Assembly: GCF_050875635.1 (NCBI RefSeq)
Contig: NZ_JBPAOH010000006.1
Coordinates: 49,729 to 113,728 of the forward strand
Direction of reading: 5' to 3'
From: Tolypothrix sp. VBCCA 56010
GTDB lineage: Bacteria > Cyanobacteriota > Cyanobacteriia > Cyanobacteriales > Nostocaceae
Length of the DNA: 64,000 nucleotides
In this document: positions 16,645 to 59,398 of the stretch, piece after piece
Layout: each line of letters starts with the position of its first letter
Position numbering within the stretch: position 1 is the stretch's first letter
The notes under the pieces: model-generated
What the model was told of the DNA's origin: nothing
What the model saw: only the letters and a program-made list of their open reading frames with translations
Databases searched by the model: none
Translations under genes and position numbers: made by a program

Positions 16645-16676
16645 GGCATCAAATCATATATGATTGCTATATGTTG

Positions 16677-17006: not shown

Positions 17007-17431
17007 TTTAGATCCTATTAAAATTATTCAACTGTAAAGATAGATGTATTTGACCATAATCTCTTTTCTCTTACATCGACCATTCGTATTACGTCTCTTT
17101 GCAGAATCTTTATTACCAGAGCCTATATATTTAAAGATTTTCATAACTGTCTAAAAAACAGTATTTAAATATACAAAATTTTTCCTTTACTTAAAAAACA
17201 ATCAATATATACAACCCTAGGGTAGATGACTCATCTGTGGTTATGTCTATATACCTTTGTCAACCAATGAGTCAAGCTGATTGAAGCAAGATTCAAGTAT
17301 CTCTGTGTGTCTCTCTTCCCATTGGCAGATGCCTGATTAATGGCAAATTATCTAACCGATAATATTGTGATTTAGATCACAGGTATATATAGATCTGGAT
17401 CACTCTCTATACCAGACAATACCTTGGATAA

Positions 17432-17656
17432 TTGGTAACAATTGTAATTGCTTTATTGTATATGAGAACTCAGTACGCTATTCGTCAATTAGTAGAAAGA
17501 GCGCTTTTTATTAAAAAATTAACTCCAGAAATTGAAAACGAAATCAATTCAGAATTGACTCAAATGGGTTACATTTCTGATGTTGATTATGAAGCTTTAG
17601 AACTCTTAATGGCAGAGATGGATGCAGGTAGAATTAAGTTGGTTTCTAGCCTTTAA
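17432..17656 (+). CDS. Hypothetical small protein
   Basis: This is an ORF only and I recognise no domain. It lies in an AT-rich intergenic context. Confidence 0.2.
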   Translation: MVTIVIALLYMRTQYAIRQLVERALFIKKLTPEIENEINSELTQMGYISDVDYEALELLMAEMDAGRIKLVSSL

Positions 17657-17932
17657 TCGTAATTTTGATTGAGAAGTTTAAATAATTGTTGAAGACATTA
17701 AGTTAATTTGCATTTTGTAACGAAATTACCAAATTTATAAATACTTTTGTAGTAGAAGCAGTGCAGGAATAGTGGCAATACCACTACTGGGATTTTTCTA
17801 CTAAGTAGACCTTTGGTTTTTTGGCATAACGATATTTTCATGATTTCAGTAGTTAATTGCCATGCATTCCTATTACTCGCTTCTAGGCGCACGCCCAAAG
17901 CAGAGAATTATACAACGCGATAAAAAATTCCT

Positions 17933-18292
17933 TTAGTCTTTATTTTCTGGTTTTTCTTTGTGCGCTTGCCAAAAAAAGTGCAAAAATTGATTGAGTTGCT
18001 GTTTAGCATCACAATCAAGCTCGTGTTTTGGTTCTTTGGCAAAAATTTGACTTAACAACGTAATAACTTCTGTGTCTAAGGCGGGTTGAAATAAATTTAT
18101 CGACCAAAGCAGGTCAGAAGCATCTCGCAGGTCAGTTATTATCGGCGGTTCTTCAATGAAAGCAACTAACATCAAAGGACGCACCCAGCACAACTGACGG
18201 GAAACGACAACTTGAATGACTTCTGCATACAGGCGTTTTGCGTCATGTTCTAAAGACACAATTTGTCCTGGCTGAAATTGGTTAATGTCCAT
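17933..18292 (-). CDS. Hypothetical protein
   Basis: A 119-aa ORF divergent from clpS. I recognise no domain. Confidence 0.4.
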   Translation of the reverse strand: MDINQFQPGQIVSLEHDAKRLYAEVIQVVVSRQLCWVRPLMLVAFIEEPPIITDLRDASDLLWSINLFQPALDTEVITLLSQIFAKEPKHELDCDAKQQLNQFLHFFWQAHKEKPENKD

Positions 18293-41896: not shown

Positions 41897-43285
41897 ATGC
41901 CTACATTTAAACTGCCTGATGGTCCTCAGACTCACCCTTGGATACAGACATTTCAGTGGCTGACTCGTCCTTTAGAATATATGGAAGAGTGTACTAAACG
42001 CTATGGTGATATCTTCACCCTGAATTTTAGACAAAATTCTGCTCCTCAAGTATTCATTAGCAACCCCCAAGTGATTCAGCAGATTTTTACTACTGATCCA
42101 AAATTATTAGACTCCGGTGAGCCAGCAGGTATAAAATCCCCTTTATTAGGACAATACTCACTGATAGCGCTAGATGGAAAGCCCCACCAACGGCAAAGAA
42201 AGCTGTTGACACCGCCGTTGCATGGAGAACGGATGCAGGCTTATGGTCAGTTAATTAGTGATATTACCGAACAAGTAACTAGTCAATGGCAGGTTGGGGA
42301 AACTTTTGCAGTGCGACCGTCCATGCAAGCAATCTCTTTTCAAGTGATTTTAAAAGCTGTATTTGGTTTAGAAGATGGACCGCGCTATGAGAAACTTAAG
42401 GAACTTCTGATTGAAATCCTCAATCCCAAAGTACCTATCCTTAGAACACTGCTGTTGATTTTTCCAGCATTGCGGCAAGATTTAGGAGCGTGGAGTCCTT
42501 GGGCAAAGTACCTGCGTCTACGCTCCTCAATTAACGAACTTATCTACGCGGAAATTCGGGAACGCAAAGAAAAACTTGATTCATCTCAAACTGATATTCT
42601 ATCTTTGATGATGGCTGCTCGTGATGAAGCAGGAGAGCCAATGACAGAGGTAGAATTACGTGATGAGTTGATGACTTTGTTGGTAGCAGGTCACGAAACT
42701 ACTGCAAATACTTTATCATGGGCGCTGTACTGGATTCATCATCTGCCGCAGGTGCGTGAAAAACTTTTGCAAGAACTGGATAATTTAGGTGAACAGCCCG
42801 ATCCTAACGTTATTTTGCGCTTACCCTATTTAAATGCTGTCTGCTCGGAAACACTGCGGATTTACCCAGTCGCGATGTCAGCTTTAAATCGACTGGTAAA
42901 ATCACCATTACAAATCGGGGGATACACATTTGAGCCTGGTACTCTACTGGTTCCCTCTATTTATTTAACTCATCATCGAGAAGATTTGTATCCTCAACCA
43001 AAGCAGTTTAAGCCAGAGCGTTTTTTAGAACGTCAATTTACCCCCTATGAATACTTACCCTTTGGTGGTGGTAATCGTCGCTGTATTGGGATGGCGTTTG
43101 CCTTGTTTGAGATGAAACTGGTTTTAGCGACAATTCTGTCTGATTGGCAAATGGAACTGGCTGATAGCAAACCTGTGCAAGCAGTGCGTCATGGTCTTTT
43201 ATTTGTGCCAGCAGGAGGTGTGAAGATGGTAGTAAAGGGTAAGCGTCCTCAAAATGAGCGTGTTTTGGAGACTAGCTTGAGTTGA
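41897..43285 (+). CDS. Cytochrome P450
   Basis: It has the heme-binding loop FGGGNRRCIG, the ETLR K-helix and the AGHETT I-helix. Confidence 0.9.
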   Translation: MPTFKLPDGPQTHPWIQTFQWLTRPLEYMEECTKRYGDIFTLNFRQNSAPQVFISNPQVIQQIFTTDPKLLDSGEPAGIKSPLLGQYSLIALDGKPHQRQRKLLTPPLHGERMQAYGQLISDITEQVTSQWQVGETFAVRPSMQAISFQVILKAVFGLEDGPRYEKLKELLIEILNPKVPILRTLLLIFPALRQDLGAWSPWAKYLRLRSSINELIYAEIRERKEKLDSSQTDILSLMMAARDEAGEPMTEVELRDELMTLLVAGHETTANTLSWALYWIHHLPQVREKLLQELDNLGEQPDPNVILRLPYLNAVCSETLRIYPVAMSALNRLVKSPLQIGGYTFEPGTLLVPSIYLTHHREDLYPQPKQFKPERFLERQFTPYEYLPFGGGNRRCIGMAFALFEMKLVLATILSDWQMELADSKPVQAVRHGLLFVPAGGVKMVVKGKRPQNERVLETSLS

Positions 43286-43460
43286 TATTGAAGAGTATAA
43301 AGAGGATTTCTACTAGAAAATGTTGGAACCCTTTTAAAGGGGTTCCTGCTCTGCTTGTCCAATTCCTCACTCAGAGCGATCAAGAATACATCAGCGCTTA
43401 GAATTCAGTTTGGGCTTTCATACAAAATAATTCTCTCATTCCCAAGGACTGACTTTTTAA

Positions 43461-44228
43461 CTAAGACACAGCTTTTTTCTTCACATAAAAGGCATCTCCC
43501 CAGGATGGATGAAATGGTGTTGTTGTTGCGACACGCTTAAAGCCATGCATTTCTAGAAATTCGTCAATTTGGTAAATTATTGCACATCCCTCATATAGTT
43601 CTCTATAATTGACTTCTGTGTTGATAGCTTCAATATACTTCAAGGTGTTTATTGCTCCCTGAAAAGCTATAAGTTCAGCGCCTTGAATGTCAATGTTTAT
43701 AATATTGAAATCCGATGGTTCTAGTTGCTCTTCTTGGAGTAGGCTATCAAGTGTTTTCGACGGAACTATGACTTGATGAGTCTCTACAATAGATGGGTAA
43801 ATTTGTTTGTGATATTTCAATGGCAAAATTGAACTACTTAAATCATTTGAAGTCACATATAAAGTTGTTTTTCCATCTGAGTTAGTGATAGCACAATTGG
43901 CTGATAGAATATTACTATTATCTTTGATATTTTCTTTCATTTTATCGAATACAACAGGGTTAGCCTCAATAAAAAAAATGTTTTTGATACCCATTTCTCT
44001 ATACAAATTTATTTCTCGACCTTCATGTGCACCAATATGAATCACACCACGTGGAATCACAGAATGCTTATTACAAAGATATTTCATATCAAGCATCAAT
44101 TGTTTTCTAGTTTGTCGCCCTATCATTGGGCCAACCTGTATCTTGATAATTTTTAAGATAGTTAGTAAAAAGACAGATGGAAACAATAATAATCTGGCTA
44201 TTCTTTCTAAACGATACTTGTTTACCAT
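43461..44228 (-). CDS. FkbM-family SAM-dependent methyltransferase
   Basis: 255 aa with the FkbM core (GAHEG...FFIEANP). Confidence 0.75.
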   Translation of the reverse strand: MVNKYRLERIARLLLFPSVFLLTILKIIKIQVGPMIGRQTRKQLMLDMKYLCNKHSVIPRGVIHIGAHEGREINLYREMGIKNIFFIEANPVVFDKMKENIKDNSNILSANCAITNSDGKTTLYVTSNDLSSSILPLKYHKQIYPSIVETHQVIVPSKTLDSLLQEEQLEPSDFNIINIDIQGAELIAFQGAINTLKYIEAINTEVNYRELYEGCAIIYQIDEFLEMHGFKRVATTTPFHPSWGDAFYVKKKAVS

Positions 44229-44295
44229 TTTTTCTTGATTGATATGATTATTTTTGTCCTAAAAAACTTTCTACTTTGATTGTTTTGAAATTACT

Positions 44296-45543
44296 TCAAT
44301 TGGCAGAATCAGGAGTTTTCCATACAGAACGCCAGCCTAATGTATACAATAAGCTTTTAACAACACCAACAATGCCATCAATTTGGTAGCCCAGGTATGC
44401 CCGACTCGCCCAAATTTTGATAAAGCTTTTAGGAATATAAATACATGCACATCTGAGCATAACCCAAAGACCTTGGGTGACAAATGTAACATACAAAGCA
44501 TCACTAAAGCTCTTGAGAAACTTGGAACGTTCAGCTCCTAAATGCAAGAGCGGTTCACTGTTCCAAGGGTCAAAAACCGTGAACTTTGTGGAGAAATCTC
44601 TGTGTGGACGGACAAACATCTTTGCGTGCTCATTCAGCAGGCAAGCTGTGAAGCTGAAACTGCTGTTGCTAATACCGACCACATCACAGTTACTTAACAT
44701 AAAGAAGTCGATGTAAAATTCTATGTTTAAATTTTTCATCCTTTCTGGGAGCTTCACGTTCAAGTCTTGTGATGTCACAGGGGAAAATTTATCAAAATCG
44801 TGAATAATGCTGTCAATATCGTCACTGCACAAAAACAGAACTGGATTTTCTAATTCACTCCATATGCTGTCTAGCCAGTTGCACCACCATTTTGAGGGAA
44901 CTACAAGCGTGTACCTGGCAAGAGGCTCTCTAATAAAATCGCCTCGTCGAATGTGAATCCCAATTATCGTTTTGCCTTTAGAGTGCAGAAGATTTAGCCC
45001 ATCCTCCAACGGTGATTTCAGATCACTCACAGGTTGAAATAGTGAGCGAAAGAATTCTTTGTGTGGTCTCAAAAATCGTGTGTGTACTTGGAAGAAACCC
45101 CACATATCAACGTTGACGAGTTCTTTATCTAGAGCTTCTAATCCCACACGAGAACTTTTTGCACCTGCCAATTTTTCAATGTAAGGGATGAATTCTGGAA
45201 TCAGATCAAACATATTTTTTCCAAATTCCCAACGCTCAATCGCGGGAGGTAAATGTTTGGAGATTGGTGCATCGTCATGTCCAAAGAGAGTCTGACCAAT
45301 CCAGGGGGGACACTCCACTGTTGCTCCACTCTTCTGAGCGCATATCCGCAAGAAAGCATACTGAAAAATCTGGTTGCCGAATCGTCCTAACTGACCGAGA
45401 GAGGATATTGTCAGAACTGGCTGGCTGGATTTTGCCTCGTTTACTGAGGAGGTGTTGATGTCTTCAGCGTCTTTTTTAAAAGTATCAAACACGCTGAACA
45501 CCCTATTTGTCTCGCTATTGGTAGTATATTTCGATTTTTCCAT
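44296..45543 (-). CDS. Glycosyltransferase family 11 (alpha-1,2-fucosyltransferase-like)
   Basis: GT11 motifs: N-terminal GRFGNQIFQYAF and HIRRGD (HxRRxD). Confidence 0.7.
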   Translation of the reverse strand: MEKSKYTTNSETNRVFSVFDTFKKDAEDINTSSVNEAKSSQPVLTISSLGQLGRFGNQIFQYAFLRICAQKSGATVECPPWIGQTLFGHDDAPISKHLPPAIERWEFGKNMFDLIPEFIPYIEKLAGAKSSRVGLEALDKELVNVDMWGFFQVHTRFLRPHKEFFRSLFQPVSDLKSPLEDGLNLLHSKGKTIIGIHIRRGDFIREPLARYTLVVPSKWWCNWLDSIWSELENPVLFLCSDDIDSIIHDFDKFSPVTSQDLNVKLPERMKNLNIEFYIDFFMLSNCDVVGISNSSFSFTACLLNEHAKMFVRPHRDFSTKFTVFDPWNSEPLLHLGAERSKFLKSFSDALYVTFVTQGLWVMLRCACIYIPKSFIKIWASRAYLGYQIDGIVGVVKSLLYTLGWRSVWKTPDSAN

Positions 45544-45585
45544 TGCTTACCCTGAATTATCATGAACTACTGCCAAACACAAAAT

Positions 45586-46905
45586 TTACCCTACAGAGCT
45601 AGATACCTCATGGCTGATTTTTTCAACGAGCGTAGTTTCCACAATATCCGCAGCTTTATCTAACCCTCCAGTGCTTTTAAGTAAGACTGACATCCGATGT
45701 GCAGCTTCAGAGTAGCTTATGTTACTCAGTAGGTAATTGATTTTTCGGCGAACCTCACCACTGTCAAAATGTTGTTTGTCCAGCTTTAAAGCAGCACCTA
45801 AGTCCACAACGCGTGCGGCAAAATAGTGCTGATCTCCAAAGAAGGGTAACGCTAGAATTGGCTTTCCCCAATACAGAGCTTCGTTAATGCTGTTCATACC
45901 ACAATGACTAACAAAGGCACGAATGGTTGGATGAGAGAGAACTGCTTGTTGCGGAACAAAATCTTCAATGCGGAAAGAGGATGGTAGTGCAGGCAGAATG
46001 TGCTGTTGGTTCTTGGGTAAAGACCACAGTACCCGAAATTTATTATCGGCAAGTCCTTTTATCAATGCTTCAGCCTGCCAGGTTTCAACAGTAGCAAGAG
46101 TGCCAAAAGCAATATACACGACTCCCTCACTTTCTTTTCCTTCTTCCAACCATTTACTTAAAGAAGCGCTCAGAGGCTTAATTGTTTTTGGGAAAATTGG
46201 TCCGACTAGGTGTACAAAGGGAGGTAGTGGGCGTGGAATTTCAATGCCAAAAGCTGTCCCTACAATCATGGGATGTTGGCTAAAAGGATCGTTCAATTTT
46301 TTTTGGTTGGAACACTGGCTGCGAACCTGATTAAGCTTTCTCATAACAGGCAAAAAGTGCAACAGCAGCCAATAGGGTCTGAAGAAATTCAGACAGCGCT
46401 GCCACAGATTCATATGTACAGAATAAGATGTTCCGAAGCGAGGATATTTAGAACTAGCTGGGACAAAGTTACCCAAAAATCGAGTTTGAATTATGTAAGG
46501 CAGATTCATCTGCTGGGCTAAGTCCATCGCTGGAATAACAGCGCGATCAATGACTAGAAGATCCGGGCTATACTGCTGAAAAATAGGTTTCAGCGTTTTG
46601 TACATAGAAACATACGAATCAACAAGCCCATTTAACATGATTTTTTCACCACGCCAGATGCTGGGTTCCTGAGAACTCTTTTGCCAAATATTCTCTTTGT
46701 TGTCATCAATTCCTTCATCAGTTTTTTCCAGTCTTGGCTCCCAGGGAATAAAATGAGCGTTGGTGTTAGCGATCCATTCCCTAGCTTCTTCGGCAATAAC
46801 AAAACTGACTTGGTATCCTCTGCATACTAACTCTTGAGCTAGTGCAATCATTTGATTGACATGACCAAGTAGAGGAAGTGAAACAAACATGACATGTTTT
46901 TTCAT
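45586..46905 (-). CDS. GT1-family UDP-glycosyltransferase (MGT/CrtX-like)
   Basis: 439 aa. It has an N-terminal GT-B half with a His acceptor-binding residue (LPLLGHVNQ) and a C-terminal UDP-sugar motif (FVSHCGMNSINEAL). Confidence 0.8.
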   Translation of the reverse strand: MKKHVMFVSLPLLGHVNQMIALAQELVCRGYQVSFVIAEEAREWIANTNAHFIPWEPRLEKTDEGIDDNKENIWQKSSQEPSIWRGEKIMLNGLVDSYVSMYKTLKPIFQQYSPDLLVIDRAVIPAMDLAQQMNLPYIIQTRFLGNFVPASSKYPRFGTSYSVHMNLWQRCLNFFRPYWLLLHFLPVMRKLNQVRSQCSNQKKLNDPFSQHPMIVGTAFGIEIPRPLPPFVHLVGPIFPKTIKPLSASLSKWLEEGKESEGVVYIAFGTLATVETWQAEALIKGLADNKFRVLWSLPKNQQHILPALPSSFRIEDFVPQQAVLSHPTIRAFVSHCGMNSINEALYWGKPILALPFFGDQHYFAARVVDLGAALKLDKQHFDSGEVRRKINYLLSNISYSEAAHRMSVLLKSTGGLDKAADIVETTLVEKISHEVSSSVG

Positions 46906-47000
46906 AATTCTGTCGTTTTTTGCTTATGACTAATGCCTAAGAACAATTGACAATTAGGAATTTAAGTTAACCAAGGCATAAACAACTTTTGTTGCTGCGT

Positions 47001-48272
47001 TTAAGCCAAGACGGGCTGTCCTGTAGATACCGCCTGTTCGACTATATCAACAGCACGACTCGCTCCCCCAGCTTGACGAATAGATTCTTGCAACCTTAGA
47101 GCATTCTGCTTGTAAGATTCTTGCGTTAATACCCGCTTTATAGCCTCTCGCAGTTTAGAAACACTCAATTTGTTGACGGGGACAACTTCACCCGCCCCAG
47201 CCCAAGCGATACGCGCTGCTATCCCCGGTTGATCGTTGGCAATGGGAATGGCAACCATTGGCACACCGTTAGTTAAGCATTCTAGAGTGGTATTCATTCC
47301 TGCATGAGTAATCACCAGGGTGGTTTTTTTCAGCAATTCCAACTGGGGTGCATATTTGACAACTAAAGGCTCACCAGGTAATTTTGGCAGTGCTTCTGGT
47401 TCAAGTGAACCTCCCAAAGACATCACCAATTGAACATCCAATCCCTCACATGCTTGGGCAATATCACGGAAAACATACTGTAGTCGATTTTGTACTGTTC
47501 CCAGTGAGGCATAAATCAAGGGTTGTCCCGTCAACTTTTCATATGGAAAAGCAACAGAGTCCCGACCAACTGGACTATGATAAGGTCCTGTAAAATGAAA
47601 CCACTTGGGTAAGTGCTGTCTTGGAAATTCTAGTTCAGCAGGCTGTTGACTGATTTGAGCAAGTTGAGAGAAGCCATCACTGGAACCAGAGGGTATGGGT
47701 AAGTTCCACTCTTGGCGATACTCTGCTATCACCTGTGTGATTGGTTTGGCAATGGTTGTGAGCAACTTGTAACCGGCTTGATTGCGAAAACGCGCCCACC
47801 AAGCAGGATGATAGCGCCAGTTAGTGAAATGAGGTGGAATACTCTCTTCTCTGTTAAGAACTACAGCACTGCATACAGTAATGAAGGGAATATCGAGAAA
47901 TTCTGCAACAGCTGCTCCCCCTGGTGAAACTTGGTCTATTAACACTGCTTCCACACCTGCTGCTTTGATGGCTTTTGGTGCATCTCGAAGCATAACAACC
48001 GCTGACTCCTTAAACAGACTGATGGTATACTTCATTGCTGCTATTCCGCTCAGTTTACCAAGATTTGTCAAAGATTGTGCGATCGCCCCACTCGGAAATT
48101 CAGCTTCGCCTATCGCCCAGAATTCCAATCCTGCTGCTAGTATCTTAGGTTTAGCATCAAGCGCTCCGATGAAAGTCACACGATGACCGCGCTTTTGAAG
48201 TTCGTACCCCAAGGGGAGCATTGTGTTGAGGTGACCAGTTGATGCAGGACAGATTAACCCAAAATGAGTCAT
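47001..48272 (-). CDS. GT1-family UDP-glycosyltransferase (second copy; start chosen at MTHFGLI with an upstream AGGT)
   Basis: It has STGHLNTMLPL and the C-terminal THAGMNTTLECL motif. The ORF-track start 54 nt upstream is less likely. Confidence 0.8.
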   Translation of the reverse strand: MTHFGLICPASTGHLNTMLPLGYELQKRGHRVTFIGALDAKPKILAAGLEFWAIGEAEFPSGAIAQSLTNLGKLSGIAAMKYTISLFKESAVVMLRDAPKAIKAAGVEAVLIDQVSPGGAAVAEFLDIPFITVCSAVVLNREESIPPHFTNWRYHPAWWARFRNQAGYKLLTTIAKPITQVIAEYRQEWNLPIPSGSSDGFSQLAQISQQPAELEFPRQHLPKWFHFTGPYHSPVGRDSVAFPYEKLTGQPLIYASLGTVQNRLQYVFRDIAQACEGLDVQLVMSLGGSLEPEALPKLPGEPLVVKYAPQLELLKKTTLVITHAGMNTTLECLTNGVPMVAIPIANDQPGIAARIAWAGAGEVVPVNKLSVSKLREAIKRVLTQESYKQNALRLQESIRQAGGASRAVDIVEQAVSTGQPVLA

Positions 48273-48447
48273 AGTTACCTGAGCTTTCCCGTAATCTTTT
48301 GATAAAGTGATTAGTTCAATTATCACTACCTCATTTCTAATGGGTGTGACAGATTGTGACTTATGCAGTCTTACTTCGTCGTTATCTATCTTGAAAATCG
48401 AAACTAGCCGCCAGTAACTTTGAAAATAAGCCGATAAAAATCAGCTT

Positions 48448-49254
48448 CTACTGTAATTTCAAAAATTTATCTAAAGCTGATATCATACTGGGGGGCCATC
48501 TGCGGATATTTTTCACCCAATTAATATCTTTGTAGCGTCTATCAAGTCCTTCAGCTGCTACCCAGTTACTTTCGGCTTCACCTTGTTGTCCCTTTACCCA
48601 GTAAGCTGCGGTAAGCGCTGCACGCATATCAGCAAATTTCGGATATTTGCGGATGATGTTTTTCATCTCGCGGATCGCTTTATCTGTTTGACCGATTTGG
48701 TAGAGAGCGAGAGCGTAATTAGCACGAGCAAAGGCAAAATTTGGAGCGATTTCAGTTGACTTTTGATAATCAGCGATCGCCTCTTCCCATTCTCCTTTAC
48801 CGGCTTTCGCATTTCCGCGATTATTATACGCCATCGCATCCTTCGGGTCAAGCTCTAACAAATGATTGTAGTCAGCTAAAGCATCATCCCATCTTCCCAA
48901 GCCTTCCAACGCTGTACCGCGATTCAAATAAGGATCGGTGGCATTTGGTGCAAGTTCTATCGCTTTGTTATAATCGGCGATCGCTTCAACCAACTTATTC
49001 TGACTTACTCTCGAATTTCCTCGGTTACTCCATATTGCCGGATTCTGAGGAAATTGCTCGATAATTTCTGTCCAGTACTTTTCAGCAGTAACAAAATCAC
49101 CTTTATCAGTAGCAGCAAAAGCCTTCTTCGCTAACTCATCGCCTTTTTGTAACTGTTCTTCCGTAAATTGGGGCTGTTGAGATTCTGCCATGACTGGTTT
49201 ACCCAGTCCAAACACAAGCAACAAACTTAACAAAATAGCAATTAATTTAATCAT
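48448..49254 (-). CDS. Secreted/lipoprotein-like TPR-repeat protein
   Basis: A signal peptide is followed by five or more TPR units (AxxYNxxGxA patterns). Confidence 0.8.
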   Translation of the reverse strand: MIKLIAILLSLLLVFGLGKPVMAESQQPQFTEEQLQKGDELAKKAFAATDKGDFVTAEKYWTEIIEQFPQNPAIWSNRGNSRVSQNKLVEAIADYNKAIELAPNATDPYLNRGTALEGLGRWDDALADYNHLLELDPKDAMAYNNRGNAKAGKGEWEEAIADYQKSTEIAPNFAFARANYALALYQIGQTDKAIREMKNIIRKYPKFADMRAALTAAYWVKGQQGEAESNWVAAEGLDRRYKDINWVKNIRRWPPSMISALDKFLKLQ

Positions 49255-49286: not shown

Positions 49287-49414
49287 CGGGGAGGGGAGGA
49301 GTGGGGGAGGGGGAGAGGGGGGAGACAAGGGAGACAAGGGAGATGGGGGAGACAAGGAAGACAAAAAGACAAACTCCCCCTTGTCCTCCTTGTCCTCCTT
49401 GTCCTCCTTGTCCC
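49287..49414. repeat. G-rich (GGGGAGG, GAGACAAGG) / C-rich (CCTTGTCCTCCTTGTCC) palindromic repeat element
   Basis: It belongs to the same family as 14272, 25493 and 30277 and lies directly 3' of ruvB. Confidence 0.75.
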
Positions 49415-50517
49415 TACAGCAAAGACATCTGCTCATTCGGTGGTGTGAAGCCCAAATGCTTGTATGCTGCTTTTGTAGCAGTTCTACCACGGGGAGTGCG
49501 GCTTAAATAGCCAATTTGCATCAAATACGGTTCGTACACTTCTTCTATTGTTTGCGTATCTTCACCTGTTGCTGCGGCAATCGTTTCTAAACCTACAGGA
49601 CCACCATTAAATTGTTCAATTATCACACTCAACATTTTCCGGTCTGTCCAATCCAAACCGCAGGGATCTACTTGGAATAGTTGCAATGCTTCGGCGGCTA
49701 CGGTTTCGGTTATCTCACCAGATTTTTTTACTTCCGCATAATCACGCACTCGCCTTAGTAGCCTATTTCCAATTCTCGGTGTTCCTCGCGAACGACGGGC
49801 AATTTCTGTGGCACCATCTATAGTCATAGGGGTTTGGAGTAATTGAGCGGTGCGTTGTATAATCTGGGTCATTTCCTCGACTTCGTAAAATCGCAGTTTT
49901 TGCACCAAGCCGAAGCGATCGCGCAATGGTGAAGTTAAAGCACCGACACGAGTTGTTGCTCCCACCAATGTAAATTTAGAAAGTGGTATACTGCGAGTTT
50001 TCGCGCTGGAACCCTTCCCAACGGTAATATCTAAGCGATAATCTTCCATCGCTGGATAGAGAATTTCCTCAGTCATCCGCGAAAGGCGATGAATTTCGTC
50101 AATAAACAGAACATCGCCAGGTTTAAGATTCACTAATAGCCCAACAATATCTCTGGGACGTTCTAGCGCAGGCGCACTCGTGATTTTATAATTTACCCCC
50201 ATCTCTGATGCTAAAATCATTGCCATTGTGGTTTTACCCAATCCTGGCGGACCGTATAGAAGTAAGTGATCTAACACTTCACTTCTAGATTGCGCTGCTT
50301 TAATGGCAATTTCTAGCACATCTTTTAAGTCTTTTTGCCCAATGTAATCAGCAAATCGGTGTGGACGAATGCTTTCTTCTTGCTTACCTTCATCAACAGC
50401 AGCTTCGGGTTGCAAAATGTCTGGTTTTGCAGTATGCGTCTCGTGAGATTTTGGTTGTTTGTTGGGTTCTTGAGGCTGTTTTTTAGAGGAAATAATCGCC
50501 ATAATTGCTGCTATCAA
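49414..50517 (-). CDS. ruvB: Holliday junction branch-migration helicase RuvB
   Basis: It has Walker A (GPPGLGKTT), sensor motifs and a winged-helix C-terminus, plus an N-terminal low-complexity extension. Confidence 0.93.
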
Positions 50518-52707: not shown

Positions 52708-54981
52708 TTAAGGTTGATACAAATGGGCAGCGCTTGGGTTGCAAGCAAGAGGAGGAAATTGCCATTTCTTCACTTGCTGTTTAAGTTCCTCCATATCTAG
52801 ATAATCGCTAATCATAGCTTTTCTTAAAATTGAGTGAGGAATAAAGCGATCGTACTTTTGAATTTCTGGCGCTTCCGCATCAGCTAATAAATCCTCAGCA
52901 GTAATTCTTTGTTCACACAACGATACAATTTCATCGTAAAGATATCTAAATTTATCTTTACCTAATTTAATCGTCAAAAAATAAGGATTAACACCACCAA
53001 TACTTTTAATTTCTAAAGATTCCCGACACCAAGAATTAACCAATCTTTCTAAAGTGCGGTAAGCAACCGTACCCATCCAAGGAAAAATGCAACATTTATT
53101 ATTTTCTAAAAGCAGAATATTTTGCTTATCTAAGCCAGAATTTCGCGCTACTTCTCGAACTTTCTGCAAACGTTTCAGCGCATTTTTTTGCAAATAGCTA
53201 TATTCAACATCTTCTAGCAAAACCTGCCGCATTCGTTGCAAAATTCTTGTGTGGATATTTCCGCTACCACCGCGCCAAAAAATACTAGCTTTACCTTCTA
53301 CTTGCTTAACCAAAATAATTTTTTTTCTAAAATCAACTTCTAAAACTTCCCAAGCTTTTCCAGCCAAAGCGAATTGATTACCGATTGGGGGAGGCATAAT
53401 AATACTACCAATTTCCGTAGTTGCCTGCTTAACAACATATTCCTCATTGTCAGGAAAAACAGCATAAAATTGAAATTTACGTACTACCTTTTCCCCAGCC
53501 AAACCGAGAATTAACTTATTTTCTTCAGTTAGCTGAACATGGTTAATATCAATTAAATAGCGAAGCAACAGCCGAAAATCTTCGAGTGCGATCGCAGCAA
53601 AACTTGGTAAACTTAAAACCTGTTTAGCAAGCGCCGCAGGCGAAACTTCACCCGCAGCTGCTAAAATACTCATTGTCTGATGATAAAGCAAACTCAAAGG
53701 ATATTTAACAGGCTTAATCGGCTCAATCCAACGTTCCTCCAAATAAAGTTGAATAATCCCAATACACTGTAAAAGTTGCCAAGGAATTTGTTCCTCCAAA
53801 GAAGCTGACGCCGATACTTTTTCCTCAGTACAAACAAACCGCATATCAGCAGCAGCACCTCTTCTACCACTGCGTCCCAAACGCTGTAAAAAACTAGCTA
53901 CAGAAAAAGGCGATTCTAACTGAATAACCCTCTCCAAATGACCAATATCAACCCCCACCTCCAAAGTCAAAGTTGCCGCAATCACAGCCGACTTATCGAC
54001 CTCACGCATCGCATTTTCAGCCGCTTGCCGCAAACTAGCAGAAATACTACCATGATGCACATGATAAATATCCGGCAATCCCTCACTCGCAGCAAATTCT
54101 CGCAAAGAAGCAATAATAGATTCAGTTTGCCTTTTATTATTAGCAAAAATCAAACACTTACGAGACTTACTAACATTAAAAACATATTCCTCATACCCAC
54201 CTCCATCTCTCTCCCCTCTTCCCTTCGCGTCCTTTACGTCTTTGCGGTTCGTTTCTCCTAAAACCCCATCACCAACATAAAAATGTTCCAAAGCAAGCTT
54301 AATTTGCCTTTTCCCCCCCTCAATTTCCGGAGTAATCACCAACTTATCACTTCCAGAACCTAACCATTCTTCAGCCATCGAATAATCACCAAGAGTAGCC
54401 GACAAACCAACTCTTCGGGGTTGCGTTTGCGTCAAACTTTGCAAACGTGATAACTGACAAAGAATTTGACAACCGCGTTCAGAACCCATAAAAGCGTGAA
54501 CTTCATCGATTATCACAAACCGTAAATCACCGAACAAACGCATCAAATCATTATTTCTATTAATTAATAAGCTTTCTAAAGATTCCGGCGTAATTTGCAA
54601 AATACCCTTAGGATTCTTTAAAAGCTGTTTTTTCCGACTTTGCGAAACATCCCCATGCCAGTGACAAACGGGAATATCCGCTTCTTTTAGCAAATCATTA
54701 AGACGTGCAAATTGGTCATTAATTAAAGCCTTAATCGGACCAATATATAATGCGCCGATAGTTTCCGGCGGATTTTCATATAATAAAGTTAAAATCGGCA
54801 GAAACGCAGCTTCTGTTTTGCCCGAAGCTGTGCCGGCTGCAACTAGCAAATGAGCATCAGTGTCAAAAATGACTTTGCAAGCAGCAATTTGAACTGGTCG
54901 CAATTCACTCCAGTTGTGATGATAAATATATTCTTGGATAAAAGGCGCAAGTCTGGAAAAAGTATGTAAAACTTCGCTCAT
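52708..54981 (-). CDS. Lhr-like (Lhr-core) DEVH-box superfamily-2 helicase; BrxHI-like
   Basis: 757 aa. It has motif I AAGTASGKTEAAF, motif II VIIDEVH, motif III LSATLGD and motif VI QRLGRSGRRG. The N-terminus W-x-L-RPVQ is like Lhr, and the C-terminal about 300 aa form an Lhr-core-like domain. Confidence 0.8.
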   Translation of the reverse strand: MSEVLHTFSRLAPFIQEYIYHHNWSELRPVQIAACKVIFDTDAHLLVAAGTASGKTEAAFLPILTLLYENPPETIGALYIGPIKALINDQFARLNDLLKEADIPVCHWHGDVSQSRKKQLLKNPKGILQITPESLESLLINRNNDLMRLFGDLRFVIIDEVHAFMGSERGCQILCQLSRLQSLTQTQPRRVGLSATLGDYSMAEEWLGSGSDKLVITPEIEGGKRQIKLALEHFYVGDGVLGETNRKDVKDAKGRGERDGGGYEEYVFNVSKSRKCLIFANNKRQTESIIASLREFAASEGLPDIYHVHHGSISASLRQAAENAMREVDKSAVIAATLTLEVGVDIGHLERVIQLESPFSVASFLQRLGRSGRRGAAADMRFVCTEEKVSASASLEEQIPWQLLQCIGIIQLYLEERWIEPIKPVKYPLSLLYHQTMSILAAAGEVSPAALAKQVLSLPSFAAIALEDFRLLLRYLIDINHVQLTEENKLILGLAGEKVVRKFQFYAVFPDNEEYVVKQATTEIGSIIMPPPIGNQFALAGKAWEVLEVDFRKKIILVKQVEGKASIFWRGGSGNIHTRILQRMRQVLLEDVEYSYLQKNALKRLQKVREVARNSGLDKQNILLLENNKCCIFPWMGTVAYRTLERLVNSWCRESLEIKSIGGVNPYFLTIKLGKDKFRYLYDEIVSLCEQRITAEDLLADAEAPEIQKYDRFIPHSILRKAMISDYLDMEELKQQVKKWQFPPLACNPSAAHLYQP

Positions 54982-55004
54982 ATATTTATTTAATTTTCTA
55001 CAGC

Positions 55005-56327
55005 TTACAAACTAAATTCTGCTGCATCGTCATCAACATCTGTATTTTTACCCACAGCAGTTAACTGAAAATCCGAACCATGAATCAATTTACTAAAAGA
55101 AATTTCGGGATTTTGGTACAGGATATTCAACACACTAATAAAATCCCGGACAATTTCGCCCGGAGTCAATAATGCTTCTGCACCCAAACGATTGACAATT
55201 TCGTTTATAAAGTCCTTCAAATCGCTATTTGTTAAAGCCTTATTATAACCAAAATTCAGAGCGTGAATCTCAACCAAACCTTGCAAAAGCGTTAATATTT
55301 CATCTTCAGTCAACGGATTTAGCCGCATCACCGGTCCCAAATATTCTTGAACACCAGCTTGAACAAAACGGCTTTCTTTAGTGCGTCTTCGCCAAGCTGG
55401 GTCGGCAAAAAGTCCGCGATTTGGGTCTTCTAAAAATTTTGTAGTTCCACCGATCACAATACCAAGATGTTCTGCTTTGCATTGCATGGTATCGTTAAAC
55501 ATTGCTAAAAGTCTGTTATAGTTCTTTTCGCGAGTAACTGTAGTGGATATTTGGTATATATGCACAACTTCATCAAGCAAAACTAAAAGTCCTTTATAGC
55601 CAATTTCCGCCACAAATTTAGCGATTAACTTAATATAGTCATACCAACTATCATCATCAATAATTACGCGCACTCCCAAAGCAGCTTTTGCTTCAGTTTT
55701 GGTGTTAAATTCGCCTCGCAACCACCGCAATGCAGCATTTTTCAAATCATCATCATCAAGCCTGTAACCGCGCCAATAAGCAACAATAACGCTACCAAAA
55801 TCAAAGCCGTGAACTAAGTCCTCAATATACTGAACTACTTCTCTAATTTTCGTTTCAACTTTATCATCAAAACCTTCATCATTAGGACGTATTCCGCTAT
55901 CTTTAGCTACTTCTTGTTGAATTTTATTAATCCAACCTTCTAAAATTGAGACTAAAGCACCACCATCCGGACGAGTTTTTGTCGCCAGACGGCTCATTAA
56001 TTCTCGATAAGTTGCCAAACCTTCGTTGTTTGTTCCTGCAAGTCTACGTTCGGAAGATAAATCAGCATCAGCTACTACAAAATTTTGCTCCATAGCACGG
56101 TTGCGAATCATTTGTAGGATGAAGCTTTTACCGGAACCGTAGTTACCAATTATAAAGCGAAATGCGGCTACACCTTCTCCAATATCGTCGAGATTTTGTA
56201 ATAGGCTTTTTAATTCTTTTTCTCGACCTACTGCTATATGTTCCAGTCCAAATCTTGGTACTACTCCCGCACTCAAAGAGTTGATTAAAGCAGTAGATAT
56301 TTTTTTGGAGATTTTAAGTTTTGCCAT
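55005..56327 (-). CDS. P-loop NTPase resembling BREX BrxD (DUF2791-like)
   Basis: 440 aa with Walker A (IIGNYGSGKSFIL) and Walker B (LLVLLDEVVH). Its size and its tight 23-bp coupling to an Lhr-like helicase match the brxD-brxHI pair. The family assignment is from memory. Confidence 0.55.
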   Translation of the reverse strand: MAKLKISKKISTALINSLSAGVVPRFGLEHIAVGREKELKSLLQNLDDIGEGVAAFRFIIGNYGSGKSFILQMIRNRAMEQNFVVADADLSSERRLAGTNNEGLATYRELMSRLATKTRPDGGALVSILEGWINKIQQEVAKDSGIRPNDEGFDDKVETKIREVVQYIEDLVHGFDFGSVIVAYWRGYRLDDDDLKNAALRWLRGEFNTKTEAKAALGVRVIIDDDSWYDYIKLIAKFVAEIGYKGLLVLLDEVVHIYQISTTVTREKNYNRLLAMFNDTMQCKAEHLGIVIGGTTKFLEDPNRGLFADPAWRRRTKESRFVQAGVQEYLGPVMRLNPLTEDEILTLLQGLVEIHALNFGYNKALTNSDLKDFINEIVNRLGAEALLTPGEIVRDFISVLNILYQNPEISFSKLIHGSDFQLTAVGKNTDVDDDAAEFSL

Positions 56328-56538
56328 CTACTTCACCTCATTTTATTTTTTAGCGGTTCTCAGCCGATTCAAGTACATATATTTGTTTATGTGTAGTTCA
56401 TTAATTTTTTGATGTATTGCACCCAATTTTAAACCGCTATAAACTCACAGGCACGCTGCCAGTAGGTAATATGTAATTGTACGATGGCAATAAGTAAGCC
56501 GGCGCTAATATTTCAACCTATGTTAAGAAATTTTAATC

Positions 56539-56651
56539 TAGGGTGCGTTGCGCGACAACATACGTTGAATTTAATATGGTGCGTTGCGCTGCGCGACAAC
56601 ATACGTTGAATTTAATATGGTGCGTTGCGCTGCGCGACAACACACCCTACG
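56539..56651. repeat. MITE-like element (termini TAGGGTGCGTT...ACACCCTACG) containing about 2.5 tandem copies of a 37-41-bp unit (GGTGCGTTGCGCTGCGCGACAACATACGTTGAATTTAATAT)
   Basis: Read directly from the sequence. It sits in the 350-bp gap between the BrxD-like and coiled-coil genes. Confidence 0.6.
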
Positions 56652-56677
56652 AAGCCGACTTATTTAATAAATTAATT

Positions 56678-57970
56678 TTATGAGGGTTGTCTAGTCGTTA
56701 ATTCATACATTGCAATCAATTTTTTGACGTTTGTTATATGCTCTTGATAAATTTCTGGAGTTTCCAAGTTTGGATTTATTATTAATTCTTCAATTGTATC
56801 ATTAGCGTGTTCATTTATAGAATCAATTAACAAATTTGGCATAGTAATATTTGTTTCGGCAATGTGTTTAATAGCAGCTTTGGGATTTTCTTGCTCTACT
56901 ATGGCTTTTAATACTTGTATTTCATAAGCTGGTAGCTGTTCTAATAATTTAGCCCATTCTTGGGGTAAATCAGATGTATTTTCAGATATTGTTTCTAAAT
57001 CTATTAAGTCAGAAAAAGGAAATAAATCTACATCTTCTTCATGCTCGTTTTCTGGAAATAATTGCTGATTGTATGTTTCGGATTGTTGGAGTAATTCCCA
57101 TACTTGATTTTGTAATAAATCGCGTTCTTGTTGCAATAATGAAATTTGCTCTTGTAAGTGATTTAATTCCTTTTTTTGTTCTGTTATTTGGGTTTGTAAT
57201 AAATTTAGGCTGGCTTCTGTATTTTCTCTTTCGGATTTTTTATTTAAAATTAATTCATTGTGCTGAGTTACCTGATTTTCTAAATCTTGCAGTTCAACTC
57301 GCAATTCGTAGAGTCTTTCTTCTAGTTGAGGTTTGAGTCTGTCTAGCAAAGTTAAATTGCTTTCAGTTTCTTGCTTTTGTTGTTGGAGCTCGCTAATTTC
57401 AGTTTGTAATTTAGTTATTTCCGCTCGCGATACGTTGGAATTTAATTCTAGACGACGTTTTTCTGCTGTGAGAGCCGAAAATGAATTATTTAGCTCGGCT
57501 TTAGTTTTGTCCAGCTTAGTAAGCTCTGTTTGTAGTAAGTTTATTTCGGCTTCTAACTGCTTTTTATGTCCGATAAAACTGCTTAATTCTCGATTTAAAC
57601 TATCTCTTTGGTTGCGGCGTTCTGATACTTGATTTTGCAGTTGATTTGACTCTGTATATAATAAGGCGCGATGCTCTTCAATTTGGTTGATTTCTCTGAC
57701 AAGACGAGATTTCAAGCCCTCAAGCTCTTTTATTCGCTTGTAGAGAGAACCTAAAACGAGCATTTCATGATTTCTGCGGATGTTATCGACAAATAATGCT
57801 GCTGCGTAACTAGCTATTACTGTAATTGCACCTGTGAGAAAGGCTTTACTAAAATCCCAAGTTGGGACGAGGCTTAGACCAAAACTCACACTAAAGGCAA
57901 CTATACCTAAAAGCAAAAATCGATTATTTCCCATTGCTGATTGCATATTGCTTGTTTTTAGTTTAGTCAA
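56678..57970 (-). CDS. Membrane-anchored coiled-coil protein (two N-terminal TM helices, about 230-aa coiled-coil, acidic C-terminal domain possibly TerB-C-like)
   Basis: 430 aa. The hydrophobic segments are FLLLGIVAFSVSFGLSLV and ITVIASYAAALFV. A long heptad-rich Q/E/L region follows. The C-terminal IDSINEHANDTIEELIIN is reminiscent of the acidic TerB-C motif, which is uncertain. Confidence 0.55.
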   Translation of the reverse strand: MTKLKTSNMQSAMGNNRFLLLGIVAFSVSFGLSLVPTWDFSKAFLTGAITVIASYAAALFVDNIRRNHEMLVLGSLYKRIKELEGLKSRLVREINQIEEHRALLYTESNQLQNQVSERRNQRDSLNRELSSFIGHKKQLEAEINLLQTELTKLDKTKAELNNSFSALTAEKRRLELNSNVSRAEITKLQTEISELQQQKQETESNLTLLDRLKPQLEERLYELRVELQDLENQVTQHNELILNKKSERENTEASLNLLQTQITEQKKELNHLQEQISLLQQERDLLQNQVWELLQQSETYNQQLFPENEHEEDVDLFPFSDLIDLETISENTSDLPQEWAKLLEQLPAYEIQVLKAIVEQENPKAAIKHIAETNITMPNLLIDSINEHANDTIEELIINPNLETPEIYQEHITNVKKLIAMYELTTRQPS

Positions 57971-58063: not shown

Positions 58064-59398
58064 TTATGTTTGGTTTTTTGAAGCCGAAAGTGCCAAATCT
58101 GCTTTCAAAAAATCAACAAACTGTCGTGCTGTTCTTCCAGATCGACCGTTGTGACGAGTTGCCCATTGCAAAGCTTGATATTCTAAATCTTCTGAGTCAA
58201 TGTTAATTGCTGCTTGTGTGGCTAAATGTCGGACAATGTTTAAATAAGTTTTCTGATCGGCAGGCTCGAAGGTTAAGGTTAGACCAAAGCGATCGCTAAA
58301 CGAAAGCTTCTCCTGCATCGTATCCCAAGCATGAATTTCATCATTATCTTTAGGTGCAGGTCTATCAGCAAAAAACTCGCGAATTAAGTGCCGACGATTA
58401 GAAGTAGCATACACGACTACGTTTTGCGATCGCGCAGTTAAATTCCCCTCTAATACTACTTTCAGCGCTTTAAAAGCGTCGTCATCTTCCTCAAAAGAAA
58501 GGTCATCGACAAAAATAATAAATTTATGTGGCACAGAGCGCAACTGTTCCACAATTTGTGGTAGGTGTTTCAAATCTGATTTTGCTACTTCCAGCAAGCG
58601 CAGGTGATGCTTGCTGTACTCATTCAACAAAGCTTTCACCAAAGAGGATTTCCCCGAACCGCGACTACCGTAAAGTAATACGTGCAGCGCTACCTCTCCT
58701 GCTAGCAAAAATTCTGTATTTTTTAATAAAGCGTCTCGCTGAGACTCATAACCCACTAATTCGCTTAACTTTACCGGATCGGCATATTTGATGCCAATAA
58801 ATTGTCCGTCGCAATAGCGCAATGCACTATATTCTGCAAATAAACCCGTACCAAATTGCCGATAATAAGCAGCTACATCTTCTACTGCATCAGCCCAATC
58901 TTCGATGTGGTGCAGTTTCTCTATTAGCAGTGATTCGTTCGTTTCTTCCAAAAGAGTAAGTTCCTCGTCATACCACACTACTGGTGAAACAGCTAGACCT
59001 GCCACAGCTTGTACCCATTCGCTCAAAAACGCGCTACTACATTCATAAAGACTTTGCAACGCTTGTAAATCATGCTGAGTCGCTGCAATTAAAGCTGAAG
59101 GCAAATTTTCAAATTCTCGCTGCCCTGCAAGCTGAGAAAATGGATTCTCATCTCTGAGAATTTGCGTAATTAAATAGTCCTCCCAGTTTTGATTTCTAGC
59201 AGCCAAGCACTTAAAGTAGTTGCCGTAAGCTTGAAGACAACTGCGTGCATCCGCTTCGGCATATCGTATACTTTGCAACAATTCCATAAATGCTCTACTG
59301 ACTTCGCCTTGGAGGACGGATTGGTAGATTAATAAAGATGCTGCTTGACGCTGGAGGAACTGAACTTTTGTCTGGAACGAATTACTTGCCGTGGACAT
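58064..59398 (-). CDS. AAA-type ATPase of the DUF815 (COG2607) family with an about 190-aa N-terminal extension
   Basis: 444 aa with Walker A (LLYGSRGSGKSSLVKAL) and Walker B (FIIFVDDLSFEE). The core of about 250 aa is typical of DUF815. Confidence 0.65.
   Translation of the reverse strand: MSTASNSFQTKVQFLQRQAASLLIYQSVLQGEVSRAFMELLQSIRYAEADARSCLQAYGNYFKCLAARNQNWEDYLITQILRDENPFSQLAGQREFENLPSALIAATQHDLQALQSLYECSSAFLSEWVQAVAGLAVSPVVWYDEELTLLEETNESLLIEKLHHIEDWADAVEDVAAYYRQFGTGLFAEYSALRYCDGQFIGIKYADPVKLSELVGYESQRDALLKNTEFLLAGEVALHVLLYGSRGSGKSSLVKALLNEYSKHHLRLLEVAKSDLKHLPQIVEQLRSVPHKFIIFVDDLSFEEDDDAFKALKVVLEGNLTARSQNVVVYATSNRRHLIREFFADRPAPKDNDEIHAWDTMQEKLSFSDRFGLTLTFEPADQKTYLNIVRHLATQAAINIDSEDLEYQALQWATRHNGRSGRTARQFVDFLKADLALSASKNQT

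Follow-up and report, generated by a model that had tools for sequence, protein, structure and literature searches.

Two kinds of glycolipid locus come closest to the gene set described here. In the sophorolipid cluster of the fungus Starmerella bombicola (CYP52M1, UgtA1, UgtB1, an acetyltransferase and a transporter) a cytochrome P450 hydroxylates a common fatty acid, two GT1 UDP-glycosyltransferases (UGTs) add sugars successively, and an optional acyltransferase and an exporter complete the set. In the mycobacterial loci for phenolic glycolipids (PGL) and glycopeptidolipids (GPL), 6-deoxyhexoses including fucose are added to a lipid core by GT1-type Gtf, rhamnosyl- and fucosyltransferases and are O-methylated, and PapA5 is involved. 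The subject of this work is a set of four genes (43461-48272) in a 64,000-nucleotide stretch of the cyanobacterium Tolypothrix sp. VBCCA 56010 (contig NZ_JBPAOH010000006.1, positions 49,729 to 113,728 of the forward strand), called the window below. The genes encode two GT1 enzymes (GT1a and GT1b), a GT11-like fucosyltransferase and an FkbM-family methyltransferase, and a P450 gene converges on them. With the sophorolipid cluster the locus has in common the combination of a P450 with two different GT1 enzymes, and PapA5-like variants and exporter neighbours occur here too; in contrast, the fungal cluster has neither a fucosyltransferase nor an O-methyltransferase, and the likeness is one of logic, not of shown orthology. 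With the mycobacterial loci it shares, by analogy only, decoration by GT1 enzymes, a PapA5-type acyltransferase and variation between strains or serovars by tailoring genes at one locus, whereas the cyanobacterial loci lack a dedicated polyketide synthase (PKS) core and the fucosyltransferase is GT11-like. Judged by these analogies, the cassette appears to work like natural-product or glycolipid tailoring systems, with these two as the closest analogues and membership in neither. A literature search on cyanobacterial fucosyltransferases, P450s, UGTs and glycolipids found no publication on this gene set.

The four genes are a real, uncharacterised accessory glycosylation cassette; four neighbouring open reading frames (ORFs) with the profile scores given below are far beyond chance. 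They constitute one fill of a variable slot between a TPR gene and the convergent P450 gene, not an isolated island. As to function, we give an even chance to the reading that they are a strain-specific fill of a modular tailoring slot and decorate a lipophilic, membrane-associated acceptor not encoded locally, likeliest a hydroxylated fatty-acyl or phenolic lipid that would be turned into a glycolipid. The enzyme calls and the general prediction of a first-pass annotation of this DNA stand; what is new is that GT1a and the P450 form a conserved core, that the slot is filled combinatorially, and that FkbM is coupled to a large GT11-like branch with a membrane tail. The features of the locus are as follows.

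47001-48272, minus strand: GT1a, GT1-family UDP-glycosyltransferase, 423 aa (Pfam UDPGT); near-constant anchor enzyme of the slot, proposed first sugar transferase
45586-46905, minus strand: GT1b, second GT1 UDP-glycosyltransferase, 439 aa, with eukaryote-like UGT signature; optional module, proposed second sugar transferase
44296-45543, minus strand: GT11-like fucosyltransferase, 415 aa (Pfam PF01531); optional module, proposed GDP-fucose-dependent step
43461-44228, minus strand: FkbM-family S-adenosylmethionine (SAM) methyltransferase, 255 aa (PF05050/TIGR01444); rarest module, proposed O-methylation of the fucosylated product
41897-43285, plus strand: cytochrome P450, 462 aa, eukaryote-like class (Pfam p450, 281 bits); convergent, proposed acceptor hydroxylase
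43325-43346, no strand given: GC-rich palindrome where the FkbM and P450 genes converge, between their stop codons; candidate bidirectional terminator
48273-48447, minus strand: 175-bp spacer from the TPR stop codon to the GT1a start; upstream edge of the variable slot, with a putative promoter
48448-49254, minus strand: TPR protein with signal-peptide-like N-terminus (many TPR Pfam families); conserved left flank, probably outside the pathway

The variable slot and its linked P450

Synteny was surveyed by tblastn of the window proteins and ORF clustering over 84 loci; individual loci are given by L numbers. In Nostoc, Scytonema, Calothrix and Rivularia the Nostocales order is kept: hisF (reverse), ruvB and the TPR gene (both forward), the slot, a P450 or an acyltransferase gene (reverse), a HAD gene (reverse), ycf65 and, further on, atpE and atpB. 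The window keeps this order, with an alpha-amylase and a DUF29 gene in addition. The content of the slot varies combinatorially, and the following fills were found.

GT1a only: N. edaphicum L087, beside the P450
GT1a-GT11: Nostoc L001, L002 and L012, beside the P450
GT1a-GT1b: Nostoc L168, P450 83% identical via tblastn
GT1a-GT1b-GT11: Scytonema hyalinum L005 and L061
GT1a-GT1a-GT11-FkbM: Stigonema L007
GT1a-GT11-GT1a: Scytonema NUACC26 L011
GT1a-PapA5-like-(third GT1): L092, L093 and L102, with the P450 beside it in L092 and L093
GT1a-GT4-like: L088, beside the P450
(GT1a)-GT11, with a PapA5-like gene replacing the P450: Rivularia/Calothrix, 14 loci
empty: L091 (8388-8500)

L091 and L088 are metagenome contigs of close relatives (flanks about 90-94% identical in nucleotides, RuvB protein 98-99%). 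In L091, a contig in which an assembly error is possible, 113 bp separate the P450 and TPR stop codons as against 5.2 kb (43284-48445) in the window, all four cassette genes are absent, and the edge of presence and absence maps to 48446. L088 carries a GT1a allele that is only 66% identical at the protein level, plus the GT4-like gene. The PapA5-like acyltransferases that recur in slot variants have the HHxxxD motif. Of the 58 loci with enough flank, 33 had GT1a or GT1b directly upstream of GT11 and co-directional with it (median gap 86 bp). GT1b adjoins GT1a and/or GT11 in varied arrangements (L005, L061, L006, L010, L058, L054, L168, L169 and L171), and in an alphaproteobacterial contig GT1b precedes a GT11-like gene of 46% identity, which also has the tail, and both lie behind genes for MATE and MacB-type exporters. 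As a separate observation, the P450 gene and the 3' part of the alpha-amylase gene are absent at the slot of L009 (3859-4722), a relative represented by a contig from a metagenome-assembled genome (MAG) or metagenome, for which assembly error is likewise possible.

The adjacent P450, at which the first-pass annotation had only hinted, belongs to the system. In a metagenome scan with a P450 alignment, covering 80 loci with the paralogues split at 61%/60% identity to the P450 of the window, GT1a was adjacent to 12 of the 25 P450 genes at or above 61% (any cassette gene to 14 of 25) and to 2 of the 55 at or below 60% (Fisher p = 5e-6). Across cyanobacteria, the link to GT1a is specific to this orthologous subgroup and takes at least three architectures. 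In Crocosphaera P450s of 67% and 62% identity occur with a GT1a (69%) and a sulfotransferase; in Chamaesiphon and Gloeobacterales bins the P450 adjoins GT11, in orientations different from that of the window. The protein has the conserved heme Cys loop (FGGGNRRCIG) and AGHETT motif, and hundreds of its cyanobacterial relatives fall at 45-60% identity. P450 families are defined by more than 40% identity to a named member, and CYP110 is the dominant family in cyanobacteria (PMC7014017). By context, the P450 is probably CYP110-type. CYP110A1 is a membrane-associated protein that binds long-chain fatty acids (PMC1079853), and CYP110E1 is a promiscuous hydroxylase (PMC3411444); the published CYP110 papers that were found do not mention glycosyltransferase neighbours.

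The TPR gene was also considered as a functional partner, an idea taken from fusions of TPR, FkbM and GT11 domains described below. This is unlikely: the protein has a signal peptide, the gene stays by ruvB when the slot is empty, and it is unlinked outside Nostocales. The N-terminal hydrophobic segment spans residues 1-25 (Kyte-Doolittle 2.28).

Enzyme families of the cassette

Pfam and NCBIfam scans took in the window ORFs of at least 120 aa, that is nearly all ORFs, and the family calls (UDPGT twice, GT11-like and FkbM) hold. GT1a and GT1b match the Pfam UDPGT model (PF00201) with 99 and 131 bits, respectively (cut-off 19.5), and they also match the EryCIII-like_C and Glyco_tran_28_C domains. 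Both translations contain the N-terminal catalytic His and the donor-binding signature (STGHLNT and THAGMNTTLE...ANDQ in GT1a, LLGHVNQ and SHCGMNSINE...FGDQ in GT1b). By the PF00201 score, the catalytic His and the H-x-G-x-N-(S/T)...D-Q signature both proteins are members of CAZy family GT1. They had been described in the first-pass annotation as two GT1 enzymes of the macrolide/carotenoid type, of which the family assignment is borne out; as regards type, the two are only 24% identical, and therefore represent two different subfamilies and no duplication, and both score below the cut-off of the NCBIfam MGT model (TIGR01426; 207.8 bits for GT1a and 154.4 for GT1b, cut-off 260).

Characterised relatives of GT1a were sought among solved structures and plasmid records. 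The nearest structures by sequence are small-molecule transferases of the YjiC/OleD type, and the best non-cyanobacterial match among plasmid records is Pantoea CrtX (35.7%, full length), discussed below. The likeness to OleD/OleI, Mgt and Bacillus YjiC/YojK is one of family neighbourhood, in which lie the closest solved structures; those enzymes glycosylate small hydrophobic compounds with UDP-glucose. What sets GT1a and GT1b apart from macrolide-type enzymes, besides the TIGR01426 scores, is, for GT1a, an identity of about 25% to plasmid-borne macrolide transferases. The homologue search with GT1a found 4977 proteins, and a GalU-like gene adjoins GT1a in Okeania, which gives a hint at the donor. 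GT1b belongs to a small family (126 homologues found), and its matches in the Protein Data Bank (PDB) include human UGT2B and plant UGTs.

The GT11-like protein matches PF01531 (Glyco_transf_11) with 41.7 bits (Pfam cut-off 23.9), and a precomputed PF01531 match exists for all of the 120 homologues listed; no NCBIfam model matches it. The two GT11 hallmark motifs reported in the first-pass annotation, GRFGNQIFQYAF and HIRRGD, are both in the translation, and so is a third GT11-type block, ISNSSFSF. The protein thus carries the three CAZy GT11 signature blocks (G-x-x-G-N-Q-x-F-Q-Y, H-x-R-R-G-D and S-N-S-x-F-S), and in an alignment of 25 homologues G53, R54, F55, G56, N57, Q58, Q61, Y62, H197, R199, D202, S292, N293, S294, F296 and S297 are invariant. 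The GT11 profile gave no match when run against PDB sequences. In the fold comparison the structural model falls into the inverting GDP-fucose fucosyltransferase superfamily. Fucose-type transfer by this enzyme is well supported; GDP-fucose as donor and the alpha-1,2 linkage are putative. The PF01531 match, the three blocks and the fold are shared with the CAZy GT11 alpha-1,2-fucosyltransferases (Helicobacter pylori FutC, Escherichia coli O-antigen enzymes WbsJ/WbgL and Thermosynechococcus Te2FT). It differs from those in its weak Pfam score, in a length greater by about 110 aa, with an N-terminal extension and a C-terminal tail, and in the position of its gene, which lies among GT1 and P450 genes, not in an O-antigen or lipooligosaccharide (LOS) locus. 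Both the extension and the tail are conserved in the alignment of homologues. The tail is helical and moderately hydrophobic (hydrophobic segment at residues 352-370).

Homologues of the GT11-like protein are numerous: 477 have 60-93% identity and occur in Nostoc, Scytonema, Moorena, Microcoleus and others, and at least 265 loci are present in a species-representative genome set, including those of Leptolyngbya, Pseudanabaena, Chamaesiphon, Gloeobacterales bins and a few Verrucomicrobia bins. A distant branch, at 42-45% identity, is found in Oscillatoriales and Firmicutes.

FkbM matches PF05050 with 67.4 bits (cut-off 22.7) and TIGR01444 with 69 bits (cut-off 37.7), and is a member of the family by both. 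It has a strong N-terminal hydrophobic segment (residues 10-28, Kyte-Doolittle 2.15), and the hydrophobic segments of the GT11-like protein and of FkbM suggest that both would act at the membrane. FkbM is 79% identical to the product of the gene following GT11 in Stigonema L007. Its best tblastn matches, 57-63% identical, abut and overlap a GT11-like match on its N-terminal side, in giant ORFs of five Oscillatoriales loci, and in Paenibacillus and Brevibacillus an FkbM match lies within 1-2 kb of a distant GT11-like homologue. This FkbM subfamily was seen only adjoining or fused to GT11-like domains (9 loci), which bears out the earlier view that the methyltransferase is coupled to the fucose-type step. 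Because of this exclusive adjacency or fusion we infer that FkbM probably O-methylates a sugar hydroxyl.

The giant ORFs are of interest in themselves. They encode 1249-1833 aa in L072 (5315-10816), L066, L067, L070 and L082 (Oscillatoriales/Pseudanabaenales), with the FkbM match abutting the GT11-like match; the Pfam domain content was confirmed for L072 alone, whose 1833-aa protein shows TPR repeats and a GT17-like domain, three FkbM domains and, at the C-terminus, a GT11-like domain.

Acceptor, proposed pathway and alternatives

As stated in the first-pass annotation, there is no aglycone-forming enzyme in the window: no PKS, nonribosomal peptide synthetase (NRPS) or terpene synthase was detected by Pfam or NCBIfam. 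Apart from the cassette the window holds housekeeping genes (fusA, tuf, rne, rnhB, atpBE and others) and a defence island. Among 107 genes that flank the GT block at 38 non-syntenic GT11 loci, tallied by Pfam, only the P450 recurred as a partner (5 loci), so that a conserved aglycone synthase beside GT11 was ruled out. No match to a known pathway was obtained. Since neither a recurrent aglycone partner nor a local synthase was found, the acceptor is likely to be a common cellular lipophile. In Microcoleus L003, genes for a ketosynthase (KS), an acyl carrier protein (ACP), a PapA-like acyltransferase and an ABC transporter occur with two GT1a copies and GT11; in Moorena L004 genes for PKS of types I and III, for O-methyltransferase and for sulfotransferase adjoin GT1a-GT11; and on a Nostoc plasmid a GT1a homologue of 63.5% identity lies amid genes for a fatty-acid desaturase, an acyl-ACP dehydrogenase, an aminotransferase and a DevBCA exporter. 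A lipophilic small-molecule acceptor, as had been predicted, gives the best fit, the class of acceptor being proposed from such contexts. The LpxD encoded beside GT1a in Crocosphaera is a true housekeeping enzyme and was left out of the evidence.

The proposed pathway would start with the P450, which would place a hydroxyl on the lipophilic acceptor. GT1a would then attach the first hexose, probably from UDP-glucose, and GT1b the second sugar. The membrane-tethered GT11-like enzyme would attach fucose or a related GDP-6-deoxyhexose, and the membrane-anchored FkbM enzyme would O-methylate the fucosylated end. This order of steps is suggested by the hierarchy of occurrence: GT1a is near-constant, GT1b or GT11 may be missing, and FkbM was never seen without GT11. 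Export of the product or a role at the cell surface is conceivable.

Several observations weigh against this reading. The GT11-like protein was modelled by AF2 with moderate confidence only (pLDDT 66.9). About 40% of the GT11-like loci are without an adjacent GT1, and the acceptor of GT11 need not be the product of GT1a. Neither an acceptor-forming enzyme nor the GDP-fucose genes gmd and fcl were found by the Pfam and NCBIfam scans of the window. The lipid contexts come from few loci with homologues of about 62-66% identity, whose acceptors may differ, and the loci behind the P450 linkage are phylogenetically non-independent, many of them on MAG or metagenome contigs. The CYP110 label of the P450 comes from context. 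The best plasmid match of GT1a, CrtX, is a carotenoid enzyme. Finally, the count of terminator-like sites in the region is not above shuffle expectation, and the same applies to the promoter scan.

The CrtX match leads to a different pathway, which we consider unlikely. The P450 would hydroxylate a carotenoid, apocarotenoid or hopanoid, the CrtX-related GT1a would glycosylate it, and the other enzymes would extend and methylate the sugar, giving, for instance, the O-methyl-methylpentoside groups on cyanobacterial xanthophylls, which are unassigned so far. GT1a is closer to CrtX than to the macrolide transferases of Bacillus/Priestia (only about 25%), and many of its homologues carry the automatic JGI label 'zeaxanthin glucosyltransferase'. 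Pantoea CrtX itself, a GT1 enzyme of the crtEXYIBZ cluster encoded between crtE and crtY, resembles the proposed first transferase in that it is a UDP-sugar enzyme acting on the hydroxyl of a lipophilic isoprenoid. An identity of 35.7% is, however, too low to transfer the acceptor, and GT1a cannot be counted as a CrtX: neither the window nor any surveyed locus has a crt or other carotenoid gene, and GT1a is paired with a P450 and further glycosyltransferases. The PDB neighbours of the P450 (CYP3A, CYP120A1, CYP4B1 and CYP97A3) include CYP120A1 and the carotenoid hydroxylase CYP97A3, but the similarity to CYP97/CYP120 is no higher than that to CYP3A. According to reviews, the enzymes for the methylpentoside end group of myxol are incompletely known, which would favour such a role, whereas the myxol glycosyltransferase has already been assigned as CruG (PMC11857680). 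Against a carotenoid also count the close relative in which the cassette is wholly absent and the occurrence of nearer homologues (62-66% identity) in lipid or polyketide clusters. To our knowledge, cyanobacterial carotenoid glycosides are monoglycosides, whereas the cassette has three glycosyltransferases. Fucosylation of myxol as such was set aside on genomic context only.

It is improbable that the locus serves detoxification or inactivation of antibiotics, with the P450 as phase-I enzyme and transferases (UGT-like, sulfotransferase, methyltransferase) as phase-II enzymes acting on foreign hydrophobic compounds such as macrolides or allelochemicals, and strain variation reflecting different chemical threats. 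The hypervariability of the slot between relatives, the sulfotransferases recurring beside GT1a and the promiscuity of CYP110E1 would fit this function, as would the xenobiotic enzymes CYP3A7, 3A5 and 3A4 as top PDB matches of the P450 and the resemblance of GT1b to UGT2B. The best NCBIfam matches of the two GT1 proteins are macrolide-family and OleI/Mgt-type transferases, and the third GT1 in L092 best matches the rifamycin-inactivating Rgt; yet GT1a and GT1b are far under the cut-offs of all resistance-type NCBIfam models, and the Rgt score of 133.7 bits is far under the cut-off of 800. Moreover, inactivation enzymes do not typically build a di- or trisaccharide that contains fucose and is capped by O-methylation, the associations with KS/ACP, PKS, PapA5-like and Dev-type exporter genes point to biosynthesis, and the membrane anchors of GT11 and FkbM agree with an acceptor in the cell's own membrane.

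Canonical GT11 enzymes act on glycans, and the GT11-like protein and FkbM could accordingly fucosylate and methyl-cap a polysaccharide, lipopolysaccharide (LPS) or glycoprotein, the GT1 and P450 genes being neighbours with a separate role. The loci without a neighbouring GT1, the L072 protein and the FkbM-GT11 fusions at four other Oscillatoriales loci agree with this, and so does a Paenibacillus cluster in which a distant GT11-like homologue (42-45%) occurs with GT4, GT61 and DUF4214 genes and adjoins a GDP-fucose-synthase-like gene, a hint at the donor; variable glycosyltransferase content at a fixed locus also recalls O-antigen and capsule loci. We nevertheless give this little credence, as the window has no flippase, polymerase, chain-length regulator, initiating phosphoglycosyltransferase or sugar-nucleotide gene and none of these recurs in the tally of the 38 non-syntenic loci, a co-directional GT1 is the immediate upstream neighbour in more than half of the loci, UDPGT-type GT1 enzymes characteristically act on small molecules (as do the PDB neighbours), and the close GT11-like subfamily has the membrane-tail extension that polysaccharide-context homologues lack.

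Edges, base composition and meaning of the slot

The four genes are co-directional on the minus strand, as previously annotated, with gaps of 95, 42 and 67 bp according to the ORF calls. The ORF call of GT1a extends to a GTG at 48326; the start was placed at the ATG at 48272, the end coordinate given in the first-pass annotation, because homologues begin with MTHFG... and a 423-aa Tolypothrix protein at NCBI is 100% identical. No minus-strand terminator-like site was found between the four genes in the terminator scan; one is at 43325-43346 (GGAACCCCTTTAAAAGGGTTCC, followed by a T-rich tail). The promoter scan did not find a consensus sigma-70 promoter in the spacer 48273-48447, and Rfam detected no regulatory RNA family inside or beside the cassette. 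Judged from their arrangement, the four genes may be transcribed as one operon. Between the ruvB stop and the TPR start (about 49300-49415), runs of a GGACAAG heptamer and its complement form a long hairpin (-53 kcal/mol, z only -2.2), which gives spurious sub-threshold miRNA matches in Rfam and could represent a terminator derived from repeats or a repeat element of cyanobacteria.

The cassette genes had been described as markedly more AT-rich than rne and ruvB, from which horizontal acquisition had been suggested. This is true of FkbM only (33.5% GC, z = -2.8; GC3 27%). GT1a (46.6%), GT1b (42.4%) and GT11 (41.9%) are ordinary in comparison with the window gene mean of 43.3 +/- 3.5% (rne 45.3%, ruvB 44.1%). 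The FkbM orthologue in the Stigonema bin L007 also has 34% GC, with neighbours at 44-48%, and FkbM alone looks compositionally foreign in both genomes that have it as a separate gene. The AT-richness argument for horizontal acquisition thus fails for the three glycosyltransferase genes, and the locus lies in conserved Nostocales synteny; compatible with acquisition are the foreign composition of FkbM, the different slot content of close relatives and the finding that the most similar cassette, that of L005 and L061 (GT1a 85-91%, GT1b 88-89%, GT11 77-80%), is flanked by more distant sequences. Because the best-matching cassette genes lie in genomes with more distant flanks, the neighbourhood appears to be vertically inherited and the slot content exchanged or sorted. 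A simple insertion mechanism was not demonstrable: the junction spacers of the window, L091 and L088 do not align, and neither direct or inverted repeats flanking the cassette, nor a tRNA at its edges, nor an integrase was found.

Elsewhere in the window, a complete Shango-type anti-phage system is encoded at 52708-57970 (minus strand), with an SngC helicase (52708-54981, PADLOC 824 bits), SngB (55005-56327, 591 bits) and a TerB-C protein (56678-57970, minus strand) that matches SngA weakly (PADLOC 67 bits). These genes are AT-rich (34-39% GC) and are followed by a DUF815 AAA ATPase gene (58064-59398). A phosphotransferase/choline-kinase-like protein (60869-62104, plus strand) and then a protein with a HopA1 type III effector-family domain (62168-63235, plus strand, 200 bits) are encoded further on, the latter unusual in a cyanobacterium. 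A 905-aa radical-SAM protein with a DUF2344 domain (13385-16102, minus strand) adjoins rne, and next to it about 2.2 kb (16103-18281) are without an ORF of at least 120 aa; GC content there falls to 32% at 17-18 kb, and no Rfam family reaches its gathering score.

If the glycolipid-tailoring reading of the cassette is correct, the widespread cyanobacterial P450-GT1 pair gains a product class, and so does the large uncharacterised GT11-like branch. In that case the slot would offer a combinatorial library made by nature, with two types of UGT, one fucosyltransferase, one sugar O-methyltransferase and one acyltransferase, and their tailoring specificities could be read by comparing the metabolomes of closely related strains. 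If the reading is wrong, the four genes make up nothing more than an accessory glycosylation operon of an ordinary kind. The enzymes belong to unremarkable families, and the cassette is directly testable by comparative metabolomics. A bolder extension, possible in our opinion but doubtful, is that many cyanobacteria make a strain-variable, so far undescribed class of glycolipids, in which a CYP110-type P450 and GT1a would be the invariant core, and a recombination-prone slot would swap head-group modules (GT1b, GT11-like, FkbM, PapA5-like, GT4, sulfotransferase) so that the slot would resemble a serotype locus, as in mycobacterial PGL/GPL; the lipid would belong to the surface or envelope and would play a part in recognition by phages, grazers or symbionts. 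Envelope glycolipids of Nostocales matter for nitrogen fixation, symbiosis and biomarker geochemistry, and the preferred reading, if true, flags a variable, possibly surface-exposed lipid in this order.

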